Origin: Escherichia coli
Lineage (GTDB): Bacteria > Pseudomonadota > Gammaproteobacteria > Enterobacterales > Enterobacteriaceae
Assembly: GCF_030013205.1 (NCBI RefSeq)
Contig: NZ_CP122648.1
Length of the DNA stretch: 64,000 bases
Direction: 5' to 3' (one strand)
In this document: in pieces, positions 12,670 through 58,797 of the stretch
Layout of the letters: every line of letters begins with the position of its first letter
How positions within the stretch are numbered: position 1 is the stretch's first letter
Translations under genes and position numbers: made by a program
Notes under the pieces: model-generated
Seen by the model: the letters and a program-made list of their open reading frames with translations, nothing else
Database searches by the model: none
Told to the model about the DNA's origin: nothing

Positions 12670-13620
12670 GTGAATTTCCAACAACTAAAGATAATCCGCG
12701 AGGCTGCACGTCAGGATTACAACCTGACAGAGGTTGCGAATATGCTTTTTACCTCACAGTCAGGCGTCAGCCGTCACATTCGGGAACTGGAGGATGAACT
12801 TGGCATCGAAATATTTGTTCGACGAGGTAAGCGACTGCTGGGCATGACTGAACCGGGCAAAGCATTACTGGTCATTGCAGAACGTATTCTGAATGAAGCC
12901 AGTAATGTTCGTCGGCTTGCAGACCTGTTTACCAACGATACGTCTGGCGTTCTCACTATTGCAACGACGCATACTCAGGCACGTTATAGCTTGCCAGAGG
13001 TCATTAAATCTTTTCGCGAACTATTCCCGGAGGTTCGGCTCGAGCTAATCCAGGGGACGCCACAGGAAATTGCGACGTTGTTGCAAAATGGCGAAGCTGA
13101 TATTGGTATTGCCAGCGAGCGTTTGAGTAATGACCCGCAGCTCGTCGCCTTCCCGTGGTTTCGTTGGCACCATAGTTTGCTTGTTCCACTCGATCATCCC
13201 TTGACGCAAATTACACCATTGACGCTGGAATCAATAGCGAAGTGGCCGTTAATTACTTACCGACAGGGGATTACGGGGCGCTCACGTATTGATGACGCAT
13301 TTGTCCGCAAAGGTTTGCTGGCAGATATTGTATTAAGTGCGCAGGATTCTGATGTCATTAAAACCTATGTTGCTCTTGGGCTGGGGATCGGATTAGTTGC
13401 CGAACAATCCAGTGGTGAACAAGAGGAAAAGAATTTAATCCGTCTGGATACGAGGTATCTTTTCGATGCTAATACTGTCTGGTTGGGACTGAAGAGAGGG
13501 CAACTTCAACGTAACTATGTTTGGCGCTTTCTGGAACTTTGTAATGCAGGACTGTCAGTTGAGGATATCAAGCGCCAGGTGATGGAGAACAGTGAAGAGG
13601 AAATTGATTATCAGATATAG
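12670..13620 (+). CDS. cbl: LysR-family regulator Cbl (sulfonate utilization)
   Basis: 316 aa ORF MNFQQLKIIREAARQDYNLTEVANMLFTSQSGVSRHIRELE...; CysB paralog next to nac. Confidence 0.9.
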   Translation: MNFQQLKIIREAARQDYNLTEVANMLFTSQSGVSRHIRELEDELGIEIFVRRGKRLLGMTEPGKALLVIAERILNEASNVRRLADLFTNDTSGVLTIATTHTQARYSLPEVIKSFRELFPEVRLELIQGTPQEIATLLQNGEADIGIASERLSNDPQLVAFPWFRWHHSLLVPLDHPLTQITPLTLESIAKWPLITYRQGITGRSRIDDAFVRKGLLADIVLSAQDSDVIKTYVALGLGIGLVAEQSSGEQEEKNLIRLDTRYLFDANTVWLGLKRGQLQRNYVWRFLELCNAGLSVEDIKRQVMENSEEEIDYQI

Positions 13621-13621
13621 C

Positions 13622-13650
13622 AAAAAGCCCGCTATAAAAGCGGGCTTTTC
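13622..13650. terminator. bidirectional rho-independent terminator between cbl and asnU
   Basis: Hairpin agcccgc-tataaaa-gcgggct with flanking A/T runs. Confidence 0.6.
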
Positions 13651-13657
13651 AGAAATT

Positions 13658-13733
13658 TGGCTCCTCTGACTGGACTCGAACCAGTGACATACGGATTAAC
13701 AGTCCGCCGTTCTACCGACTGAACTACAGAGGA
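13658..13733 (-). tRNA. asnU: tRNA-Asn (GUU)
   Basis: Reverse complement matches the tRNA-Asn sequence exactly. Confidence 0.9.
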
Positions 13734-13893
13734 ATCGCTGTTGAGGCACATCTTAACGGCGAAAAATCTTTTGTCAAACCCGATTTTTAAATTTCCCAAC
13801 TGTTTGCCGTTTCTATCAACAGTTTGTTGCATTTGCAGACAATTTGTTGGCGAAAATCTTTGCAGCTTTGCTGATTCTCCCTCATTATTTGAA

Positions 13894-15381
13894 ATGTGGT
13901 TTCACTTTCTGCAATTAAGGTCGGCTTTGAATATCTCCTCTGCTTTACGCCAGGTTGTTCACGGCACTCGCTGGCACGCTAAACGCAAGAGCTACAAAGT
14001 GTTGTTCTGGCGCGAGATAACCCCGCTTGCTGTTCCTATCTTCATGGAGAACGCCTGTGTCCTGTTGATGGGTGTCCTGAGCACTTTTCTGGTCAGCTGG
14101 CTGGGAAAAGATGCGATGGCCGGCGTGGGATTGGCGGACAGCTTCAATATGGTCATTATGGCATTTTTTGCGGCTATCGATCTTGGTACCACTGTCGTTG
14201 TGGCATTTAGTCTCGGTAAGCGGGATCGACGACGAGCGAGGGTGGCGACGCGGCAGTCATTGGTGATCATGACGTTGTTTGCCGTGCTGTTGGCAACGCT
14301 TATTCATCATTTTGGCGAACAAATTATTGATTTCGTTGCGGGTGATGCCACGACAGAAGTTAAAGCACTGGCGTTGACTTATCTGGAGCTGACGGTACTC
14401 AGTTATCCAGCAGCTGCCATCACTTTGATTGGTAGCGGGGCACTTCGTGGTGCAGGGAATACGAAAATACCGCTACTGATTAACGGTAGCCTGAATATTC
14501 TTAATATTATTATTAGCGGCATATTGATTTACGGCCTTTTCTCCTGGCCGGGACTGGGATTTGTCGGGGCTGGGTTGGGGTTAACCATTTCTCGTTATAT
14601 TGGCGCAGTGGCAATTTTGTGGGTGCTGGCGATTGGTTTTAATCCTGCGCTAAGGATTTCGTTAAAGAGCTATTTTAAACCGCTGAATTTTAGCATTATC
14701 TGGGAAGTCATGGGGATTGGTATTCCAGCGAGTGTCGAATCAGTATTATTTACCAGTGGTCGGTTATTAACCCAAATGTTCGTTGCCGGGATGGGGACCA
14801 GTGTTATTGCCGGGAATTTTATCGCGTTTTCAATTGCGGCTCTTATCAACTTACCCGGAAGTGCGCTCGGCTCTGCTTCTACGATCATTACAGGCCGAAG
14901 GTTGGGGGTAGGGCAGATAGCGCAAGCAGAGATTCAGTTGCGGCATGTGTTCTGGCTGTCCACTCTTGGATTAACGGCCATCGCCTGGCTAACGGCTCCC
15001 TTTGCCGGGGTTATGGCATCGTTTTACACCCAGGATCCACAGGTTAAACATGTCGTTGTGATTCTGATTTGGCTAAATGCTTTATTTATGCCTATTTGGT
15101 CCGCCTCATGGGTGCTACCCGCTGGATTTAAGGGTGCTCGCGATGCCCGTTACGCCATGTGGGTTTCTATGTTGAGCATGTGGGGTTGCCGGGTTGTAGT
15201 CGGTTATGTGCTGGGAATCATGCTTGGCTGGGGTGTGGTTGGTGTCTGGATGGGAATGTTTGCCGACTGGGCTGTGCGGGCCGTGCTGTTTTACTGGCGA
15301 ATGGTTACTGGACGTTGGCTGTGGAAATATCCTCGACCCGAGCCGCAAAAGTGTGAAAAAAAGCCAGTTGTGTCGGAATAA
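13894..15381 (+). CDS. yeeO: MATE-family efflux transporter
   Basis: ORF 13741-15381, 12-TM-like hydrophobic profile; start uncertain, 13894 (MWFHFLQ...) chosen because 13741 abuts asnU. Confidence 0.8.
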   Translation: MWFHFLQLRSALNISSALRQVVHGTRWHAKRKSYKVLFWREITPLAVPIFMENACVLLMGVLSTFLVSWLGKDAMAGVGLADSFNMVIMAFFAAIDLGTTVVVAFSLGKRDRRRARVATRQSLVIMTLFAVLLATLIHHFGEQIIDFVAGDATTEVKALALTYLELTVLSYPAAAITLIGSGALRGAGNTKIPLLINGSLNILNIIISGILIYGLFSWPGLGFVGAGLGLTISRYIGAVAILWVLAIGFNPALRISLKSYFKPLNFSIIWEVMGIGIPASVESVLFTSGRLLTQMFVAGMGTSVIAGNFIAFSIAALINLPGSALGSASTIITGRRLGVGQIAQAEIQLRHVFWLSTLGLTAIAWLTAPFAGVMASFYTQDPQVKHVVVILIWLNALFMPIWSASWVLPAGFKGARDARYAMWVSMLSMWGCRVVVGYVLGIMLGWGVVGVWMGMFADWAVRAVLFYWRMVTGRWLWKYPRPEPQKCEKKPVVSE

Positions 15382-42987: not shown

Positions 42988-43491
42988 TTACTGATAGTGT
43001 TTTATGTTCAGATAATGCCCGATGACCTTGTCATGCAGCTCCACCGATTTTGAGAACGACAGTGACTTCCGTCCCAGCCTTGCCAGATGTTGTCTCAGAT
43101 TCAGGTTATGCCGCTCAATGCGCTGAGTATAACGCTTGCTGATAACGTGCAGCTTTCCCTTCAGGCGTGATTCATACAGCGGCCAGCCATCCGTCATCCA
43201 TACCACGACCTCAAAGGCCGACAGCAGGCTCAGAAGACGCTCCAGTGTGGCCAGAGTGCGTTCACCGAAGACGTGCGCCACAACCGTCCTCCGCATCCTG
43301 TCATACGCGTAAAACAGCCAGCGCTGACGTGATTTAGCACCGACGTAGCCCCACTGTTCGTCCATTTCAGCGCAGACAATCACATCACTGCCCGGTTGTA
43401 TGCGCGAGGTTACCGACTGCGGCCTGAGTTTTTTAAGTGGCGGAAAATCGTGTTGAGGCCAACGCCAATAATGCGTGCACTGGCGCGACAT
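42988..43491 (-). CDS. insB: IS1 transposase InsB
   Basis: Identical 167 aa product to the first copy. Confidence 0.9.
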
Positions 43492-43685
43492 CCGACGCCA
43501 TTCATGGCCATATCAATGATTTTCTGGTGCGTACCGGGCTGAGAGGCGGCGTAAGTGAACTGTAGTTGCCATGTTTTACGGCAGTGAGAGCAGAGATAGC
43601 GCTGATGTCCGGCGGTGCTTTTGCCGTTACGCACCACCCCGTCAGTAGCTGAACAGGAGGGACAGCTGATAGAAACAGAAGCCAC
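43410..43685 (-). CDS. insA: IS1 InsA
   Basis: Identical 91 aa product to the first copy. Confidence 0.9.
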
Positions 43686-46541: not shown

Positions 46542-46823
46542 ATGGAAGAATTAAGAATATTTCTCAATTCTCTTTCGTCAGATGAACAGCGTATGTTTGC
46601 ATGCGAGTGTGGTACCAGCATCGGTTATCTAAGAAAGGCATTGAGTAAAGGTCAAGTGTTAGGGGCATCGTTATGCGTCCTTATTGAGCGAGCCAGTAAT
46701 GGTGAAGTTACACGTCAGCAACTAAGGCCTTTTGATTGGATGAATATTTGGCCCGAGCTGGAAGATACCAAAACGTTAACACAACCACTTTCTAGGAGCT
46801 TGATTCATGAAAATCAAGCATGA
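46542..46823 (+). CDS. Cro/DicC-like small regulator
   Basis: 93 aa ORF facing the repressor across a ~100 bp operator-like spacer. Confidence 0.5.
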   Translation: MEELRIFLNSLSSDEQRMFACECGTSIGYLRKALSKGQVLGASLCVLIERASNGEVTRQQLRPFDWMNIWPELEDTKTLTQPLSRSLIHENQA

Positions 46824-47232
46824 ACACATCCGCATGGCGATGAATGCCTGGGCGCATCCGGACGGTGAAAAAGTTCCGGCAGCTGAAATAACCAGGGCTT
46901 ATTTTGAACTGGGTATGACGTTCCCAGAACTGTATGACGACAGCCATCCGGAAGCCCTGGCTCGCAATACCCAGAAAATTTTCCGCTGGGTAGAGAAAGA
47001 CACCCCTGATGCAGTTGAAAAAATTCAGGCGTTGTTACCAGCGATCGAAAAGGCAATGCCACCTTTGCTGGTGGCCAGAATGCGCAGCCACAGTTCAGCT
47101 TATTTTCGGGAGCTGGTGGAGACGCGGGAGCGACTGGTGAGAGACGCTGATGATTTTGTCGCAGTGGCAATCGCCGGTTTCAATCAGATGAACCGTGGTG
47201 GCCCGGCAGGAAATGCTGTGGCAGTACATTGA
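46807..47232 (+). CDS. YdaT-like prophage protein
   Basis: 141 aa starting MKIKHEHI and ending ...VH, like Rac YdaT. Confidence 0.5.
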   Translation: MKIKHEHIRMAMNAWAHPDGEKVPAAEITRAYFELGMTFPELYDDSHPEALARNTQKIFRWVEKDTPDAVEKIQALLPAIEKAMPPLLVARMRSHSSAYFRELVETRERLVRDADDFVAVAIAGFNQMNRGGPAGNAVAVH

Positions 47233-47297
47233 CTGACAATAGCCATATCGAATCGCTTCCGGCAACTCGTGAGTAAAAAGATTCGGTATCAGAAGAG

Positions 47298-48374
47298 GTG
47301 AGTATGGCTAACGCCTGGCTCAGATTATGGCATGACATGCCAAATGACCCTAAGTGGCGAACAATTGCCAGGGTGTCAGGGCAGCCAATTGCAACAGTGA
47401 TGGCAGTGTATATCCACCTCCTGGTGAGCGCGTCACGAAATGTCACGCGAGGTCACATTGATGTCACGACAGAAGATTTGGCAAGTGCGCTCGACGTGAC
47501 AGAAGAGGTAATTGATTCAATTTTGCAGACGATGCAGGGGCGGGTACTTGATGGTGATTTAATCACTGGATGGGAAAAACGCCAGGTGCTTAAAGAGGAC
47601 AACGGCAATATTTCGCAAACCGCAAAATCTCCTGCAGAGCGCAAGAGGGCGCAGCGAGAGAGGGAAAGAAAGCGGGAACAAAATGGCGATTGTCACGGCG
47701 CGTCACGAAATGTCACGCACATGTCACGACGAGTCACGACAGATAAAGATACAGATAAAGATACAGATCAAGAAGATCAAAACACTATGGTCCATGGCGT
47801 AAAAAACGCCACGAACCGGGCAGGGGATGTTCAGACCGTCAATCTTGGTCAGCCAGCAGGCACGACACCGGAAGCCGATTCAGCGTATGCGCTGAAAGCC
47901 GATTCGGGCGCTGTGCAGCAGGTGATGACCGCAAGGCTGGAGCAATCACACCAACTGCAGCAGCCCGAAGCCGATTCCGCCATTCAGCGGGAAGCCGATC
48001 GGGTAGTCCCGGAAAACACCGGGCAGTCTGTGGGACGAGTGGATTATCCGGATGTGTTCGAACAGGTCTGGCGGGAGTACCCGTTGCGTGCCGGAGCAAA
48101 CCCGAAGAAATCCGCTTTCAGTGCCTGGAAGGCCAGATTACGCGAGGGGGTGCCACCAGAGGCCATGCTGGATGGCGTGAGGCGTTACGCAAGATACTTG
48201 GCGGCTACCGGGAAAACGGGAACGGAATTTGTTCAGCGAGCGACGACGTTTTTTGGACCGGACCGGAATTTTGAGAACCCCTGGTTGCTCCCGGTAAGCG
48301 GCACGAACAACCAGCGTTGTGTGAATCATATTTCTGAACCGGATAACGAAATTCCGCCGGGCTTCAGGGGGTAA
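47298..48374 (+). CDS. phage replication initiator-like protein with internal iteron clusters
   Basis: 358 aa; two clusters of GTCACG-type repeats inside the gene (~47425-47475, ~47690-47745), as in lambda O/ori. Confidence 0.5.
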   Translation: MSMANAWLRLWHDMPNDPKWRTIARVSGQPIATVMAVYIHLLVSASRNVTRGHIDVTTEDLASALDVTEEVIDSILQTMQGRVLDGDLITGWEKRQVLKEDNGNISQTAKSPAERKRAQRERERKREQNGDCHGASRNVTHMSRRVTTDKDTDKDTDQEDQNTMVHGVKNATNRAGDVQTVNLGQPAGTTPEADSAYALKADSGAVQQVMTARLEQSHQLQQPEADSAIQREADRVVPENTGQSVGRVDYPDVFEQVWREYPLRAGANPKKSAFSAWKARLREGVPPEAMLDGVRRYARYLAATGKTGTEFVQRATTFFGPDRNFENPWLLPVSGTNNQRCVNHISEPDNEIPPGFRG

Positions 48375-48414
48375 GTGTTAATTTCTGGTCATGAGGTAAT
48401 TTTCAGGAGGGCTT

Positions 48415-48837
48415 GTGGCAAAAGTTTTTACACAAGAAGAGCGGGAAAAAATTAAAGGACAGGTTGTTGAACTCGTACGCCAGAGTGGGCGTGAGACGTT
48501 ACGGCAACTGGAAGTCAAGACAGGTGCGACAAGATATCTGATGAGCGTTCTCGCAAGAGAGCTGGTTGCCAGCGGCGATGTATACAACTCTGGTTACGGG
48601 TTATTCCCGTCTGAACAGGCGCGTAAGGACTGGCAAAATGCCCGTAAAAAGCTCTCAAGGGCAAAGCTGAAGAAACCATCTGCGGTTGATCCGGACCTTA
48701 TCTGGTCATTACCTGACGGAGAAATACGTCGCTACGACAGGCGTCAGAACATAATCTGTCGCGAGTGCCGGAAGAGTGAAGTTATGCAGCGCATATTGTC
48801 GTTTTATCAGGGTGATGTTCGGTATTTATTGAAGTGA
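48415..48837 (+). CDS. hypothetical prophage protein
   Basis: 140 aa ORF following the replication gene. Confidence 0.4.
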   Translation: MAKVFTQEEREKIKGQVVELVRQSGRETLRQLEVKTGATRYLMSVLARELVASGDVYNSGYGLFPSEQARKDWQNARKKLSRAKLKKPSAVDPDLIWSLPDGEIRRYDRRQNIICRECRKSEVMQRILSFYQGDVRYLLK

Positions 48838-48983
48838 CGAGATTAAAGTGCATTAGTTCAGATGCAAATTGACATTTTGTGGCACAGGGTAGAGCTAGCG
48901 TGGTTGTCCGCTTTGTGCCAACAGCGGACATTATAGATGGTATATGTAGAAAGTGAACATGCGTAGATTGTATGATTTAGCCG

Positions 48984-49793
48984 TCACTTAATTATTGGAT
49001 AACTCACACAAGTATGACCGTTGCTTATCGCATACATTTGGTTTCCCTTAAGATTTACAAATGGAAATGTCGTATACTCATAATTTATAGAGGTCATATT
49101 AAATGTAAGGAATTTATCTTCAAGTTCTAATTTTGTAGAGTGGGCAGGGTATGTTCCTTCATTTTTCATTGTGATAATAAAACCGATAGGAAAAAAATGT
49201 AAAGCACAAATAAATGCCACATGTCCTTCGTTCATAAATGCTACACTTTGAGCGGATATGTGCATTCTGTGTGGGTAAAACCAGTAGTAAATATCATGAG
49301 TTTCCTCAAAACTTGAATTTTTACCCAAAACATAATCCTTTAAAGGTGTATAGAAGGGGCTATCTACGGGTTCTTTTTTACAATCTTCAACTGAAGTTGC
49401 TGATAGCACGTGCCCAATCATAGCCTTAGTGAAAGATATGCTATCAAAAGGTATTCTAATGAATGGATATACATTCATACCATTCATATATCGACTTAAC
49501 TGTTCTTTAAAGGACTTTGTTACATTTTCAATTGCAACATCGAGCCCACCTAATACCTTATTGTTACAGTGGCTGCAAATGGTTCTGAAATAAGAGCCAT
49601 TTTTAGCATTTAATGGTTTAACTGGTTCCTGAATACCAAAAAATTCGCTAACTGTTTTCTGCAAAACAGGGCCTAAGGTTATGGCGCACTTTGGAGGAAC
49701 ATGATCTTTTGTGAGCAAGCCATATTTCCCACAAATATTGCAATAACCTTCAGTAATGCCATTGTGCTTCCATCGTTCACTAATTTTCGTCAT
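48984..49793 (-). CDS. HNH-nuclease-domain protein with unknown C-terminal domain; candidate defense/abortive-infection cargo
   Basis: 269 aa; N-terminal HNH signature C18-x2-C21...D30-H31...N62/N65...C73-x2-C76-N-N-K; visibly AT-rich and opposite in orientation to the flanking prophage genes. Confidence 0.6.
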   Translation of the reverse strand: MTKISERWKHNGITEGYCNICGKYGLLTKDHVPPKCAITLGPVLQKTVSEFFGIQEPVKPLNAKNGSYFRTICSHCNNKVLGGLDVAIENVTKSFKEQLSRYMNGMNVYPFIRIPFDSISFTKAMIGHVLSATSVEDCKKEPVDSPFYTPLKDYVLGKNSSFEETHDIYYWFYPHRMHISAQSVAFMNEGHVAFICALHFFPIGFIITMKNEGTYPAHSTKLELEDKFLTFNMTSINYEYTTFPFVNLKGNQMYAISNGHTCVSYPIIK

Positions 49794-50116
49794 TTTTATT
49801 CCCTCAGTAGCATAAGCTATCTATACGTTTTTTAATCCTATCAAAGATACAACTTAACGTCAGGAAAATGATAGTGTTTATCTAAGTAATACAATTAACT
49901 TCAACGCGTGACAGTCTGCTTTTCGCTAAAAGCGGACTAGAAGGTTAGCTTGCGTCGGACTTGGCGTATTTAAAGAAGTGCTGGTGGTGACTGGTTGTTG
50001 TGTTCCATTTCTACAGAACAAAATCACAGAAACTATACCCAATAGTTGTATTGAATCACTGACGAGACAGCCTCATATTTATCAGGACTGGTGTACGTCC
50101 AATACAGGAGGTTGTG

Positions 50117-50206
50117 GTGCTGGTTCTCAAATGTGCGCTGGCTATTGCTGCTGTAATGGCAATTTATTGCCTTGCTGTTGTTCTTATGGATCGCCTTTCT
50201 GATTGA
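50117..50206 (+). CDS. candidate small hydrophobic peptide (29 aa), type I toxin-like
   Basis: AGGAGG 5 nt upstream of GTG; MLVLKCALAIAAVMAIYCLAVVLMDRLSD; below the ORF-track length cutoff, read by hand. Confidence 0.3.
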   Translation: MLVLKCALAIAAVMAIYCLAVVLMDRLSD

Positions 50207-50254
50207 TTTTATATTGGCGAGGTGACGTGAGTTAAGTAGAATTGCTGCGGGTGC

Positions 50255-50683
50255 TTGAGGCTATCTTCCTCTGATGTGTCAGGCATCCTCAACGCACCCG
50301 CACTTAACCCGCTTCGGCGGGTTTTGTTTTTTCCTGGCATTCTGGTTTACAATTCGCACGCCAGCCTGAACAACTGGCACCTGCTGCGCCAGCAGAGACA
50401 ACCGATGGCGCACGATACCAAATTACACAATTCTGATAATTCAGCCGTCTTTGCCAGCAGGCACGGGCGGCGCTCTCACGCATTTAAATCTGATTGGTAC
50501 CAGCATCCCCCATGTACTGAAGAACAAGCTGAATGGCTAATTCAGTGCTGCCGCAGACACGGATACGAGATTAAGAAAGCCCTCAGCCTCGATTATCGTC
50601 ACTGGATAATCTCCGTCAGGCTTCCTTACTCCGAACGCCCACCGCGTCCGTCCCGCACATTCCAGCAACGGATCTGGAGGTAA
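50255..50683 (+). CDS. hypothetical nin-region protein (possibly YbcN-like)
   Basis: 142 aa ORF upstream of the DUF968-like gene; start may be the internal Met (MAHDTKLHNSDN...). Confidence 0.4.
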   Translation: MRLSSSDVSGILNAPALNPLRRVLFFPGILVYNSHASLNNWHLLRQQRQPMAHDTKLHNSDNSAVFASRHGRRSHAFKSDWYQHPPCTEEQAEWLIQCCRRHGYEIKKALSLDYRHWIISVRLPYSERPPRPSRTFQQRIWR

Positions 50684-50684
50684 C

Positions 50685-51740
50685 GTGCGGGTATTACTTC
50701 GACCTGTTCCGGTACCGGAACTTGGGCTGGTGGTGCTAAAGCCGGGCCGTGAATCCATGCAGGTATTTCATAACCCTCGAGTGCTGGTGGAGCCGGAACC
50801 GAAAAGCATGCGCGGTCTGCCATCCGGGATTGTTCCTGCCGTTCGCCAGCCACTGATGGAAGATAAATCATTACTGCCATTTTTCAGCGACGAACGGGTG
50901 ATTCGTGCTGCTGGCGGCGCAGGCGCATTGTCTGACTGGCTCCTGCGTCATATTAAATCCTGCCAGTGGCCTCATGGTGACTACCATCACAGTGAAACCG
51001 TCATACATCGTTACGGTACTGGCGCGATGGTATTGTGCTGGCACTGTGACAACCAGCTGCGCGACCAGACATCAGAGTCACTCGGGCAACTTGCTCAACA
51101 AAACCTGTCAGCATGGATGATTGACGTCATCCGTCACGCAATGAATGGCACACAGGAGCGGGAATTATCGCTGGCTGAATTATCCTGGTGGGCGGTCCGC
51201 AATCAGGTGGCGGACGCGCTACCGGAAGCGGTATTACGTCGTTCGCTGGGGTTGCGTGCGGAAAAAATCCGCCCAATGTACCGTGAAAGCGACATCGTGC
51301 CGGGAGAGCAGACCGCCACCAGCATACTGAAGCAGCGCACAAAAAATCTTGCGCCGCTGCCTCACGCCCACCAGCAAAACCCGCCACAGGAAAAGACGGT
51401 GGTCAGCATTGCCGTTGATCCGGAGTCACCGGCTCAGTATCTCCAGCGCCAGAAACCACAACGGGAAGAGATGCCTGTATACACGCGTTGGGTAAAAACG
51501 CAGAAATGCATGACGTGCGGTAATCAGGCAGATGATCCGCATCACATCATTGGTCATGGACTGGGAGGGATGGGAACAAAGGCTGATGATTTGTTTGTTA
51601 TTCCGCTGTGCCGTAAATGTCATAACGAACTGCACGCCGGGGTAAAAGATTTTGAAGAAAAACACGGCAGCCAGCTGTTGTTGCTGATTCGTTTTTTAAT
51701 GCACGCGAGAAATTCGGGTGTCCTGAAGTGGAAAGCATGA
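50685..51740 (+). CDS. nin-region protein with C-terminal HNH-like zinc motif (DUF968-like)
   Basis: 351 aa; C-terminal CMTCGNQADDPHHIIGHGLGG...PLCRKCHNELH. Confidence 0.55.
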   Translation: MRVLLRPVPVPELGLVVLKPGRESMQVFHNPRVLVEPEPKSMRGLPSGIVPAVRQPLMEDKSLLPFFSDERVIRAAGGAGALSDWLLRHIKSCQWPHGDYHHSETVIHRYGTGAMVLCWHCDNQLRDQTSESLGQLAQQNLSAWMIDVIRHAMNGTQERELSLAELSWWAVRNQVADALPEAVLRRSLGLRAEKIRPMYRESDIVPGEQTATSILKQRTKNLAPLPHAHQQNPPQEKTVVSIAVDPESPAQYLQRQKPQREEMPVYTRWVKTQKCMTCGNQADDPHHIIGHGLGGMGTKADDLFVIPLCRKCHNELHAGVKDFEEKHGSQLLLLIRFLMHARNSGVLKWKA

Positions 51741-52106
51741 ATGACTGAACGCATAGAATTTGTTTTGCCTTACCCGCCGACGGTGAATACCTACTGGCGA
51801 CGTCATGGCAATACGTATTTCATCTCGGAAGCCGGAAAGCGTTATCGCCGTGATGTGGCGCTAATTGTTCGCCAGCAGCGGCTGAAATTAAGCCTGTCCG
51901 GAAGGCTGGCGATAAAGATTATTGCAGAGCCACCGGATAAGCGCCGCCGCGACCTGGACAATATCCTGAAGGCACCACTGGATGCGCTGACGCATGCCGG
52001 ACTACTTATAGACGACGAGCAGTTTGATGAAATCAATATTGTGCGCGGTCAGCTCGTTCCTGGTGGGCGGCTGGGGATAAAAATCACAGAACTGGAGTGC
52101 GCATGA
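51741..52106 (+). CDS. rusA: Holliday junction resolvase RusA
   Basis: 121 aa with RusA motifs ...PDKRRRDLDNILKAPLDAL...; directly upstream of Q. Confidence 0.85.
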   Translation: MTERIEFVLPYPPTVNTYWRRHGNTYFISEAGKRYRRDVALIVRQQRLKLSLSGRLAIKIIAEPPDKRRRDLDNILKAPLDALTHAGLLIDDEQFDEINIVRGQLVPGGRLGIKITELECA

Positions 52107-52771
52107 ATAACCAGTATTTACAGTTTGTGCGTGAGCAGCTCATTATCGCCACCGCTGATTTGAGTGGGGCAACAAAAGGTCAGCTTGAAGCCTGGCAAGA
52201 GAATGCCATGTTCGATACAGGGCGTTACAGGCGAAAAAAAATCCGGTACCGCGATGAAGTGACTGGAAAAATGATAACGCGGGATAATCCACCAATCCCG
52301 GGAAAGCAATCGCTGGCGAAGGGGACGTCAATTCCTCTGGTCAGTCCGGTTGAGTTTTCGACATCATCGTGGCGGCGGGCTGTTCTGTCTCTTGAAGAAC
52401 ATCATAAAGCCTGGTTGTTGTGGTGTTACAGCGGGAGTATTTGTTGGGAATATCAGATCGCGATAACACAGTGGGCGTGGAATGAATTTAATACTCAATC
52501 CGGTACCAGAAAAATTGCAGGGAAAACGCAGGAACGCCTGAAAAAATTAATCTGGCTGGCGGCGCAGGCAGTAAAAGCAGAACTTTTTGGTGGGGAAGGT
52601 TATGAATACCAGGAGCTGGCATTACTGGCGGGAGTGACAACTAAAAACTGGTCCAAAACATTTACTGGTCACTGGGTTGCAATGAAACACACTTTTCATC
52701 GGCTGGATAGTGAGGCTTTATTGTTCGTGACGAGAACACGTTCAAAACAAAAGGCGGCGTTTTCACTGTAA
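52097..52771 (+). CDS. late-gene antiterminator Q-like protein
   Basis: 224 aa ORF after rusA and before a strong terminator, the standard Q position. Confidence 0.55.
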   Translation: MRMNNQYLQFVREQLIIATADLSGATKGQLEAWQENAMFDTGRYRRKKIRYRDEVTGKMITRDNPPIPGKQSLAKGTSIPLVSPVEFSTSSWRRAVLSLEEHHKAWLLWCYSGSICWEYQIAITQWAWNEFNTQSGTRKIAGKTQERLKKLIWLAAQAVKAELFGGEGYEYQELALLAGVTTKNWSKTFTGHWVAMKHTFHRLDSEALLFVTRTRSKQKAAFSL

Positions 52772-55856: not shown

Positions 55857-56039
55857 ATGAGCAGAAAACACTGGACACACAGAATGCCGCGAACGGCGGC
55901 GAAATGGGCACTGGTAGCGATACTGGTGCCTTTTTTATTGGCGGGATGCGTCAGCCTGGATAGGGCGCGTCAGCTTTTGGATGCTGCCTCTCAGGTCTGT
56001 GAAATTGTCAATGGTGTCCGGCAGTGTATGCAGAACTGA
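55857..56039 (+). CDS. lipoprotein spanin-like (Rz1/o-spanin-like)
   Basis: Start at MSRKHWTHRM...; signal peptide with lipobox LLAGC; follows the endolysin. Confidence 0.5.
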   Translation: MSRKHWTHRMPRTAAKWALVAILVPFLLAGCVSLDRARQLLDAASQVCEIVNGVRQCMQN

Positions 56040-56080
56040 ACGACGGTGAGAGCAGAATATTTTTAGTGGAGCGAAGTTCT

Positions 56081-56431
56081 ATGCCATCACGAATCCCACG
56101 CGCCTGCCGTAAGCGTGGATGTGCAGGTACAACCACAGACAGTTCTGGTTACTGCGATAAACATCGTGGCGAAGGATGGGTACAGCATCAACGCGGACTG
56201 AGCCGCCACCAGCGTGGCTATGGCTCGAAATGGGATACCATACGTGCGCGCATACTGAAGCGTGATAATCATCTGTGTCAGAACTGCCTGCGCAATGGGA
56301 GAGCCGTTGAAGCCAGAACTGTGGACCACATCATTCCGAAAGCTCATGGTGGCACGGATGCAGACAGTAACCTGCAGAGTCTGTGCTGGTCCTGTCATAA
56401 AGCAAAAACAGCGCGCGAACGCATCAATTGA
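56081..56431 (+). CDS. HNH endonuclease (terminase-associated)
   Basis: CxxC...DHIIPKAHGG...N...CWSCHKAK motifs; immediately upstream of the terminase small subunit. Confidence 0.75.
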   Translation: MPSRIPRACRKRGCAGTTTDSSGYCDKHRGEGWVQHQRGLSRHQRGYGSKWDTIRARILKRDNHLCQNCLRNGRAVEARTVDHIIPKAHGGTDADSNLQSLCWSCHKAKTARERIN

Positions 56432-56578: not shown

Positions 56579-57061
56579 ATGTCAGGCCCCCCGAAAACCC
56601 CGCCACGCCTGCATTTGATACGAGGCAACCCCTCAAAACGTCCCGTTAAAGACCCCAAAAAAACCGCTAAAAAGGACGAAAAAGGTCTTCCTAAAATTCC
56701 GCAACATTTAGGGGCGCAGGGGAAGTACTGGTTCAGGCGAATGGCGGAAGAGTTGAATGCGGAAGGGATCATTTCTCAGCTCGATGCACGTGCGCTCGAG
56801 TTACTGGTGGAAGCCTACACCGAATACCGGCATCACTGCGAAATACTCGATGTTGAGGGTTATACCTACCGCACGGAAACGCAGAATGGCGATGTGCTGA
56901 TCAAGGCACACCCGGCTGCTGCGATGAAGGCTGATGCCTGGAAGCGAATCCGGGCGATGCTTGCAGAGTTTGGTATGTCACCGGCAAGCCGGGCGAAAGT
57001 AAATACCGCCGGACCGGATGATGTTGATCCGCTGGCAGAGCTTTTAAAAGCGAGAGACTGA
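56579..57061 (+). CDS. terminase small subunit (P27-like)
   Basis: 160 aa; stop overlaps the large-subunit start. Confidence 0.7.
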   Translation: MSGPPKTPPRLHLIRGNPSKRPVKDPKKTAKKDEKGLPKIPQHLGAQGKYWFRRMAEELNAEGIISQLDARALELLVEAYTEYRHHCEILDVEGYTYRTETQNGDVLIKAHPAAAMKADAWKRIRAMLAEFGMSPASRAKVNTAGPDDVDPLAELLKARD

Positions 57062-58797
57062 TGGCAAAAGTGGCTGACGGGATCCGCTACGCCGAACGTG
57101 TTGTTGCAGGAGAAATTGTTGCTGGCGAATTTGTCCGTCTGGCCTGCCAGCGTTTTCTTGATGATCTGAAGTACGGCGAAGAGCGGGGGATTTATTTCAG
57201 TGAACCCCGTGCACAGCACATCCTGAATTTCTACAAATTTGTACCCCATGTGAAAGGGGCGCTGGCAGGTCAGCCCATTGAGTTGATGGACTGGCATGTG
57301 TTTATCCTCATTAATATTTTTGGTTTTGTCATTCCGCTGGTGAATGAAGAAACCGGGGAAGTTGTCATGCGCAGCGATGGCAGTGGATGCCCGGTGATGG
57401 TGCGCCGGTTCCGGACAGCATACAACGAAGTTGCCCGTAAAAACGCAAAATCAACCCTGTCATCGGGTATCGGTCTGTATATGACGGGGGCAGATGGTGA
57501 AGGCGGGGCTGAGGTGTATTCAGCCGCAACCACGCGTGACCAGGCCAGAATCGTGTTTGAAGACGCCAAAAATATGGTCAGAAAAGCCCGGTCGACACTC
57601 GGGCGATTGTTTGATTTCAACAAGCTGGCGATCTACCAGGAGCAGAGCGCATCAAAATTTGAACCCCTTTCCTCGGATGCAAACAACCTGGACGGTCTGA
57701 ACATCCACTGCGCCATTATTGATGAGCTGCATGCACATAAAACCCGCGACGTGTGGGACGTTCTGGAAACGGCAACCGGTGCCCGTCTGCAGTCCCTGTT
57801 ATTTGGTATCACCACGGCGGGCTTTAACAAGGAAGGGATTTGTTACGAGCAACGCGATTACGCCATCAAGGTATTGCGAGGCTATAACAGCGACGTGGAG
57901 GGCGCGGTAAAAGACGACTCCTACTTTGCAATTATTTACACGCTCGATGAGGGAGATGATCCGTTTGATGAAACGGTCTGGCAGAAAGCGAATCCCGGCC
58001 TGGGCATCTGTAAACGCTGGGATGATCTGCGTCGTCTGGCGAAAAAGGCGAAGGAGCAGGTCTCGGCGCGGGTGAATTTTTTCACGAAACACATGAATGT
58101 GTGGGTCACTGCCGAATCTGCCTGGATGGACATGATTAAGTGGGAGAAGTGCGAATACATTGCTCCACAGCATGAGCTGAAAACATATCCCATGTGGGTC
58201 GGCGTCGACCTTGCTCATAAGATTGATATCTGTGCGGCGGCAAAACTCTGGCGAACCGATAACGGGCATGTTCATGCCGATTTTAAATTCTGGCTTCCGG
58301 AAGGACGGCTGGAACGATGCTCGCGGCAGCAGGCAGAACTTTACCGGAAGTGGGCAGAGATGGGGAAGCTCATCCTGACGGATGGTGATGTTATCGATCA
58401 TGCTCAGATAAAAAGTGACTTACTGGAATGGATTGGCGGTGAAAACCTCAGGGAACTGGGATTTGACCCGTGGAGCGCAATGCAGTTCAGTCTGGCGCTG
58501 GCTGAAGAAGGGATACCGCTGGTGGAAGTTCCGCAGACGGTCCGCAATCTGTCAGAGGCTATGAAGGAAACGGAATCACTGGTTTATGCCGGACGTTTCC
58601 ACCACAGCAATCATCCGGTCATGAACTGGATGATGTCTAACGTTACGGTAAAACCGGACAAAAACGACAATATCTTCCCGAATAAATCCACGCCGGAAGC
58701 CAAAATCGACGGCCCTGTTGCGATGTTTACAGCAATGAGCCGGATGCTGGTCAATGGCGGTGAACTGAAGTTGCGTAGAGAAGTGGTCAATAATTGA
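57061..58797 (+). CDS. terminase large subunit
   Basis: 578 aa, ATPase plus nuclease layout; last phage gene before the host junction. Confidence 0.8.
   Translation: MAKVADGIRYAERVVAGEIVAGEFVRLACQRFLDDLKYGEERGIYFSEPRAQHILNFYKFVPHVKGALAGQPIELMDWHVFILINIFGFVIPLVNEETGEVVMRSDGSGCPVMVRRFRTAYNEVARKNAKSTLSSGIGLYMTGADGEGGAEVYSAATTRDQARIVFEDAKNMVRKARSTLGRLFDFNKLAIYQEQSASKFEPLSSDANNLDGLNIHCAIIDELHAHKTRDVWDVLETATGARLQSLLFGITTAGFNKEGICYEQRDYAIKVLRGYNSDVEGAVKDDSYFAIIYTLDEGDDPFDETVWQKANPGLGICKRWDDLRRLAKKAKEQVSARVNFFTKHMNVWVTAESAWMDMIKWEKCEYIAPQHELKTYPMWVGVDLAHKIDICAAAKLWRTDNGHVHADFKFWLPEGRLERCSRQQAELYRKWAEMGKLILTDGDVIDHAQIKSDLLEWIGGENLRELGFDPWSAMQFSLALAEEGIPLVEVPQTVRNLSEAMKETESLVYAGRFHHSNHPVMNWMMSNVTVKPDKNDNIFPNKSTPEAKIDGPVAMFTAMSRMLVNGGELKLRREVVNN

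Follow-up and report, generated by a model that had tools for sequence, protein, structure and literature searches.

A hairpin-bounded single-gene cassette of a lambdoid Escherichia coli prophage encodes a candidate HNH-type immune nuclease

Described HNH effectors and prophage-borne defenses

The His-Me finger superfamily (groups 1 and 8 in Jablonska et al. 2017, PMC5714182) and the HNH_5 family (PF14279) are characterized by a zinc-stabilized ββα-metal core with the pattern CxxC…(D/E)H…CxxC(N/H). This pattern is shared by the 269-aa protein that is encoded at 48984–49793 of the window, the whole stretch of 64,000 nt of Escherichia coli DNA analyzed in this article. The protein differs from HNH_5 in that it has no HMM match of its own, carries an insertion of ~35 residues between two strands, and contains an obligatory C-terminal domain of ~165 aa not known elsewhere.

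PF14279 is one of the HNH families by which effectors paired with AAA15/21 ATPases are annotated. Septu PtuB, likewise, is an HNH-type nuclease acting in phage defense, and PtuA-like genes lie near some homologs of the 269-aa protein. Septu is reported to inhibit phage T6 by cleaving tRNA-Tyr. However, PtuB needs its adjacent PtuA ATPase, whereas the 269-aa protein has neither an ATPase partner nor a PtuB match in PADLOC; no ATPase gene lies beside it in the window, and no neighbor recurs. The first-pass annotation had set the protein apart from the components of Septu, Zorya, Gabija, and Shedu, which agrees with the absence of any PADLOC match. McrA, the HNH type IV restriction enzyme of the e14 prophage, carries its HNH domain at the C terminus—the reverse of the domain order found here. 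The C-terminal domain of the 269-aa protein showed no fold match to any PDB entry, including any modification-reader domain represented there.

In T4 endonuclease VII (PF02945), the Asp and the Asn are metal ligands. The order of its motifs—CxxC, then DH, then CxxC-N (T4 sequence verified against 1e7d)—is the same as in the 269-aa protein. An hhalign comparison of the family profile with this verified sequence returned a probability of only 2%; hence, the likeness is a motif-level analogy. No evidence was found that the 269-aa protein forms a domain-swapped dimer or resolves junctions as endonuclease VII does.

Single-gene defenses carried as prophage cargo include fun(Z), old, and tin of P2 as well as PD-T7-1, and their niches—the fun(Z) locus, the portal–gpA (tin/old) locus, and the lambdoid slot—are shared by the gene and its relatives. 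Moreover, fun(Z), a PD-T7-1 homolog, and the gene at 48984–49793 all run antisense to the flanking phage genes. Their domains, however, are unlike those of the 269-aa protein, and given the lack of a PADLOC match, there is no detectable sequence relationship to any of the four.

Sirona and Nemetona are single-gene cassettes of the Vibrio cholerae N16961 superintegron with experimentally shown anti-phage activity; a distant kinship with His-Me finger (HNH) endonucleases is ascribed to both, and homologs of Sirona are reported from 34 genera of Pseudomonadota (Darracq et al., bioRxiv 10.1101/2024.07.02.601686). The 269-aa family also occurs as a Vibrio attC cassette. Its Vibrio cluster includes V. 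cholerae, but the V. cholerae protein, P0265, was encountered on no more than 16 contigs and so lies outside the pandemic lineage; the V. cholerae representative genome is not among the 80 loci kept of 101 matches. It is unlikely that the 269-aa protein belongs to one family with Sirona or Nemetona. The mobile-integron (BRiC) paper and a 2026 cassette-recovery preprint describe no protein resembling it, and no mention of WP_000161640 or phrog_21495 was found in the literature searched. The protein resembles single-gene prophage cargo defenses and the HNH effectors PtuB and McrA, yet by partner gene, PADLOC and HMM matches, and domain content it cannot be assigned to any of them.

The gene and the two domains of its product

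As the first-pass annotation had stated, the 269-aa ORF is oriented against all flanking phage genes: ORF calls place every flanking ORF at 46542–48837 (cro-like to DUF977) and at 50255–52771 (to Q) on the plus strand. A GAGGGA ribosome-binding site can be read 7 to 8 nt 5′ of the ATG, and a promoter scan found no consensus σ70 promoter upstream of the gene, 49794–49879 included. The annotated AT-richness was confirmed as well. The whole gene has a GC content of 0.349 (GC3 0.296), ranging from 0.335 to 0.378 along its length, versus 0.50–0.60 in the neighboring phage genes on both the replication side and the nin/Q side. Orthologs hold a GC content near 0.35 even in the GC-rich hosts Klebsiella and Serratia. 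Across orthologs in four backgrounds, among them a P2-like phage, Klebsiella, and Serratia, the dN/dS is 0.05–0.14; purifying selection thus acts on this conserved single-gene module.

Table 1. Coordinates of the gene, its domains, and the associated cassette features. Positions refer to the window unless a comparison locus (L) is named.
Feature	Coordinates	Strand	Remarks
CDS, 269 aa	48984..49793	−	ATG start; RefSeq WP_000161640.1
Residues 1–104, putative zinc-ribbon-stabilized His-Me finger (HNH_5-like) core	49482..49793	−	Conservation, model, HNH links of relatives
Residues 105–269 and stop, family-specific α/β domain, proposed recognition or regulatory domain	48984..49481	−	Invariant G127-H128, W171, P202, P244
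5′ noncoding region traveling with the gene (presumed promoter and ribosome-binding site)	49794..49879	−	~95% identity with P2-like phage pro147, backbones unrelated
24-nt hairpin GTCCGCT-N10-AGCGGAC, 3′ cassette junction	48906..48929	.	Backbone homology ends at 48929–48933
24-nt hairpin, second copy (GTCTGCTTTTCGCTAAAAGCGGAC), 5′ cassette junction	49914..49937	.	Backbone homology resumes at 49923
Variable cargo slot, DUF977 gene (48415–48837) to hok region	48933..49922	.	Six related prophages, six contents
Further hairpins	L010 3992–4015 and 5166–5231		
Further hairpin	L021 5248–5271		
Further hairpin	L023 6865–6888		
Further hairpin	L024 2476–2499		
Further hairpin	L025 2477–2500		
Further hairpin	L027 2073–2096		
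PD-T7-1 homolog, E. coli CUVET19-1937	L010 5545–6894	−	Same DUF977-proximal slot

The motif of the protein comprises C18-x2-C21, D30-H31, N62/N65, and C73-x2-C76-N77-N78-K79. In an alignment of 103 family sequences reaching down to ~20% identity, C21, H31, C73, C76, N77, D85, G127, H128, W171, P202, and P244 are invariant, and C18, D30, P33, P34, G66, L81, and G82 are conserved to at least 90%. The most conserved blocks are residues 15–36 and 65–90. Judged by this conservation, the CxxC…DH…CxxCN arrangement is no chance pattern, and C18, C21, C73, and C76 are the presumed zinc ligands.

An AlphaFold2 model computed from the alignment has a pLDDT of 86.5 and a pTM of 0.88, with the motif blocks at pLDDT 92–94. 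Herein, D30-H31 terminate the strand formed by residues 24–32, which places the putative catalytic His at a strand end as in other His-Me fingers. C73, C76, and N77 are positioned where the strand 67–73 enters the long helix 74–103; N77 lies in the first turn of this helix, the location of the metal ligand in the His-Me finger. The two strands are separated by residues 33–66, the insertion of ~35 residues mentioned above, which is modeled with low confidence.

The first-pass annotation had read a complete HNH signature. The motif is indeed present and near-invariant across the 103 sequences, but no HNH match to the 269-aa protein itself was obtained in Pfam (E ≤ 10), NCBIfam (E ≤ 1), or PADLOC-DB v2 2023 (E ≤ 1), and PDB sequence-profile searches with two alignments gave spurious matches alone (E about 1–2). 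In a per-member Pfam scan of the 103 relatives, HNH_5 was matched by one at E ≤ 1e-3 (best 8.9e-5) and by six at E ≤ 0.1, and Endonuclease_7 was weakly matched by four at E ≤ 0.1; besides these two, no enzyme family recurred. With no HMM match of its own and few matching relatives, the protein is to be regarded as a remote HNH_5 relative rather than an HMM-defined member. Foldseek searches against AFDB50 retrieved full-length structural relatives with TM scores of 0.6–0.86 from Proteobacteria, Cyanobacteria, Leptospira, Deferribacteres, and Firmicutes, many of which bear the name "HNH endonuclease 5 domain-containing protein." It is these relatives, along with weak structural matches, that support the HNH assignment. 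It is concluded that the N-terminal ~100 residues form a remote, zinc-stabilized His-Me finger of the DH…N type, in line with the N-terminal HNH-type nuclease core that had been annotated.

WP_000161640.1 is named "hypothetical protein," "chaperonin," or "metal-binding protein," depending on the source. The latter two names would fit a noncatalytic zinc-binding protein—a regulator or a "chaperonin"—with an HNH-like motif that is purely structural, and the failure of every HMM to detect a nuclease domain in the protein points the same way. However, neither name is backed by a domain match in Pfam, NCBIfam, or PADLOC, and H31 and N77 are invariant and D30 is conserved to at least 90%, residues that a purely structural zinc site would not need. 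A noncatalytic role is hardly to be expected on these grounds.

The C-terminal ~165 residues match nothing in Pfam, NCBIfam, PDB sequences, or PDB folds, as had been claimed for a slightly longer stretch of ~190 residues. The mean pairwise identity is 26% in this domain versus 36%, so that the C-terminal domain diverges faster. Full-length members of the family make up phrog_21495 in PHROGs, where no function is assigned. There are 93 clusters of close homologs, in Gammaproteobacteria; at 50% identity and E ≤ 1e-3, the family extends to 1,780 clusters from many phyla, of ~270 aa and nearly all of one architecture.

The host prophage, its cargo slot, and the cassette borders

The window is 99.9–100% collinear with E. 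coli O139:H1 W13-16, which makes the RefSeq annotation of the latter transferable. The host element is a Rac/Qin-like lambdoid prophage of about 38.9–58.8 kb in the window, inserted beside tRNA-Ser and mtfA, with the gene order dicB … cI-like (minus strand), cro-like, ydaT, a 358-aa gene, DUF977, the gene at 48984–49793 (minus strand), hokD in relatives, DUF968, rusA, and Q. This prophage is defective. In the identical RefSeq genome, its integrase carries a frameshift; an IS1 (42988–43685) breaks its DUF1482 gene, and the large terminase gene (57061–58797) is followed by the host gene zinT without any head or tail genes. A second, identical IS1 copy is located at 31635–32402. Compared with otherwise identical strains, the window is without ~333 bp that hold the hokD toxin CDS (junction 50268–50271; 13573–13904 of locus L001), and the overlap of 4 nt at the junction suggests a microhomology deletion. 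The Hok/Sok RNA family was not detected in the remaining hok region, and an Rfam scan of 48600–50800 matched neither this region nor the junction hairpins described below.

Two other His-Me finger proteins are encoded by the same prophage: DUF968 (50685–51740; YdfU-like, with a C-terminal CxxC…HH…CxxCH) and a terminase-associated HNH protein (56024–56431). This brings the HNH-type proteins to three in ~8 kb. The role of a packaging-associated HNH is held by the gene within 56024–56431, beside the terminase genes (56579–58797). The gene at 48984–49793 lies ~7 kb off, is antisense, and is dispensable.

A DNA-processing function for the prophage itself, be it as a packaging HNH or as an endonuclease VII-like resolvase of branched DNA, is suggested by the pattern shared with T4 endonuclease VII, by the four relatives weakly matching Endonuclease_7, and by gene copies that adjoin terminase genes. 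The prophage, however, already contains both a packaging HNH next to the small terminase and a RusA resolvase (51741–52106). The gene is, in addition, antisense to the phage operons, missing from most genomes that have its flanks (see below), and found outside phages. Together with the hhalign result, this makes such a function highly doubtful.

The slot behind DUF977 is filled differently in every related prophage examined. In six prophages, six contents were found: (1) two genes without known function; (2) an antisense gene without known function followed by an antisense PD-T7-1 homolog (E 7e-157); (3) QueH; (4) an antisense α/β hydrolase; (5) DUF4406 and small genes; and (6) a truncation. 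This answers the check on slot variability that the first-pass annotation had proposed, and—along with an AT content above that of the flanks, seen in 45 of 46 viral loci—it substantiates the view of horizontally acquired cargo. The antisense gene preceding the PD-T7-1 homolog in content 2 (L010) encodes 314 aa, is bounded by hairpins, and is itself a defense candidate.

Homology to other lambdoid prophages ends and resumes on either side of the gene at a 24-nt hairpin (Table 1). There are two copies of GTCCGCT-N10-AGCGGAC in the whole 64-kb window versus 0.025 expected per shuffle. Positions 48906–49879 are 94.5% identical to the unrelated P2-like phage pro147, and a 100%-identical copy of the gene lies between P2-type sheath and fibre-assembly genes on an IMG/VR contig (L034). 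The gene thus moves alone, as a hairpin-bounded cassette of ~1 kb.

The same hairpin brackets another antisense cassette in a different E. coli prophage (L010), and the conserved backbone ends at it regardless of the cargo. It also occurs at the G-proximal fun(Z) junction of P2, YpM_22, and P2-EC30; in the Z-region of P2-EC30, these 24 nt open the annotated "left inverted repeat." Inverted repeats of the Z-region were reportedly described by Nilsson and coworkers in Mol Biol Evol in 2004. The hairpin was further observed downstream of umuC in a Klebsiella island; beside the Serratia, Klebsiella, and Vibrio copies of the gene, it was not found. The hairpins were considered as a target of the nuclease itself, an idea that was rejected: they bound other cargo as well and belong to the P2 and lambdoid backbones. 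The hairpin may be a shared joint for the swapping of cassettes between P2-like and lambdoid phages.

Genomic contexts and proposed function

While the DUF977 flank occurs in ~4,000 E. coli genomes, the gene itself was found in 140 of the 5,426 complete genomes of this species. Homologs bearing the motif occur in 101 of ~100,000 species representatives, scattered over many phyla. Among sequenced phage genomes, three records contain the gene, all stemming from E. coli strains; a P2-like temperate phage accounts for at least two, and no virulent phage with the gene was found. In 15 of 46 viral contigs, no more than 1.5 kb separates the gene from a contig end; both neighbors are antisense in 14 and co-oriented in 4. 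Apart from backbone genes, no neighbor recurs in 21 gene groups (70% identity), and this supports the single-gene status that had been annotated.

The phage pro147 and related viral contigs carry the gene in the interval flanked by the P2 tail-sheath and tail-fibre genes. P2 itself has fun(Z) in this FI–G interval, annotated as "cloned gene blocks growth of T5"; the fun locus is described as a second defense-enriched locus of P2-like phages (Vassallo et al.). Relatives of 33–37% identity are inserted between the P2 portal and gpA genes, which is the tin/old hotspot. Further copies are placed behind Q, next to the terminase where a prophage ends, or at the end of a filamentous prophage or P2 remnant. 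In Vibrio, the gene is a one-ORF integron cassette between 124-nt attC/VCR repeats, with different neighbors in three arrays. On plasmids, the 100%-identical protein is found on at least 48, of IncF and other types. In an actinomycete assembly (Streptomyces sp. IBSBF 2953, a 3-kb contig), a 41%-identical homolog of gammaproteobacterial type was observed, which may be contamination rather than genuine distribution.

Such contexts bear on the possibility of a selfish, free-standing homing-type HNH endonuclease that spreads by cutting its cognate site. HNH enzymes are common homing endonucleases, and herein a compact unit of ~1 kb shifts between unrelated backbones with similar hairpins at both of its junctions. 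Yet the insertion contexts—a lambdoid slot, two P2 loci, attC cassettes, islands, and plasmids—are unrelated to each other, numbering at least eight without a fixed cognate site. The hairpins also bound cargo without the gene and are absent beside the Serratia, Klebsiella, and Vibrio copies, and the gene is nearly absent from sequenced phage genomes. Selfish homing is therefore very improbable. Neither a homing nor a packaging HNH conserved in this position, either of which would have spoken against the first-pass annotation, was found.

The plasmid copies reside in an IS26-bounded fragment, apparently captured from a Rac-like prophage. Around the identical gene on IncF plasmids of K. pneumoniae and E. 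coli (L074–L076), a short integrase, a 476-aa gene, DUF2254, betT, and relBE were observed. The 476-aa protein, the short integrase, and DUF2254 have no PADLOC match. It could be argued that the nuclease stabilizes its carrier or attacks rival plasmids and prophages—an addiction or inter-element competition module. Its persistence in a defective prophage, its identity across at least 48 plasmids, the predicted conjugative nature of 44 among all 60 plasmid matches, and the abundance of stabilizing toxin–antitoxin cassettes in Vibrio superintegron arrays would be in keeping with this. However, no antitoxin or immunity partner recurs in the 21 gene groups, the plasmid copies lie in captured prophage DNA and not in a maintenance region, and the neighbors of the family are typical anti-phage systems. 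An addiction or competition module is, on balance, rather improbable. A classical toxin–antitoxin module was rejected: there is no conserved small neighbor, and the Vibrio cassette consists of this ORF alone between two attC sites.

Shedu SduA (E 4e-164), a DrmC-like PLD nuclease, a Septu-like PtuA/PDC-M01 pair, and a TIR cassette are encoded in the vicinity of homologs in islands. For 24 diverse representative genomes, the 48 ORFs closest to the homolog and at least 200 aa long were compared with PADLOC families; matches at E ≤ 1e-10 were obtained for 10 of them, in 9 genomes. These are CBASS cyclase (twice, in related loci), PtuA, GajA (1e-188), an OLD-like ATPase, AbiTii, a type IIG enzyme, an IetA-like ATPase, and HsdS plus HsdR, which enclose the homolog. 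This enrichment has a P of about 1e-4 under an assumed, not empirical, background of 5%, and it is marginal when full-length strong matches alone are set against an assumed background of 5–8%. The gene repeatedly occupies recognized defense hotspots and defense islands.

Several of these neighborhoods deserve separate mention. In Citrobacter werkmanii and Tenebrionibacter (L082; L085 5860–6680), the homolog is 60–100 bp away from a convergent gene for a CBASS oligonucleotide cyclase (E ~1e-115). In Thiomicrorhabdus cannonii (L119 3822–9267), a 29%-identical homolog is located between hsdS and hsdR of a type I restriction–modification system, a position resembling that of the PrrC anticodon nuclease, which is encoded inside the EcoprrI locus. 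By this analogy, the placement hints at a possible "back-up to restriction" role. In an Enterobacter-type subgroup of ~55% identity, a 224-aa protein is always encoded convergently and directly downstream (L018 8852–9526; L047–L049, L052). It belongs to phrog_32988 in L048 and, by Pfam, has an EAL domain (c-di-GMP phosphodiesterase type) in L018; it is either co-traveling cargo or prophage backbone.

The 269-aa protein is probably a self-sufficient mobile immune nuclease that protects the host and, hence, the carrier element. It is its location—in recognized hotspots and beside known systems—that points to defense, as the first-pass annotation had proposed. The carriers would be temperate phages, plasmids, and integrons, and the targets other phages or invading DNA. 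Mechanistically, C18, C21, C73, and C76 would hold a structural zinc. By analogy with established DH…N-type HNH enzymes, H31 would act as the general base that activates water, with D30 and N77 binding the catalytic metal. The faster-evolving C-terminal domain may restrain or direct the nuclease such that cutting is limited to a phage-specific cue or substrate. With no immunity partner to do so, this domain would confine cleavage to infected cells or phage-type substrates, and its gating would explain the host's tolerance of a nuclease that has neither an immunity protein nor an antitoxin. The substrate would most likely be DNA, with tRNA as an alternative; the outcome could be direct restriction or abortive infection.

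A more far-reaching interpretation, put forward here tentatively, is that the protein is the founding example of a phylum-spanning family of single-protein immune nucleases. Herein, a C-terminal sensor of new fold would respond to infection or to a feature of phage nucleic acid and unleash a minimal HNH core, the whole being exchanged as a cassette of ~1 kb along at least four routes—hairpin-bounded phage hotspots, attC integron sites, IS26 capture, and defense islands.

The annotated feature is real, correctly described, and sensibly interpreted; it is a well-supported candidate immune gene, the candidacy being unusually well backed by genomic location. Nuclease-based phage defense borne by mobile elements is already known; what would be new is the C-terminal domain and the stand-alone architecture. 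Carried by prophages and conjugative plasmids, the gene already circulates in E. coli, Klebsiella, Shigella, and Enterobacter, which would make it relevant to phage therapy and to phage resistance at the strain level should it protect against phages. Its distribution illustrates how one cassette moves between P2-like and lambdoid hotspots with a common boundary hairpin. If protective, the protein would be a compact, partner-free nuclease system of 269 aa with a previously unseen regulatory or recognition domain, and it would offer a tractable way to learn how a nuclease without a partner spares the cell that makes it.
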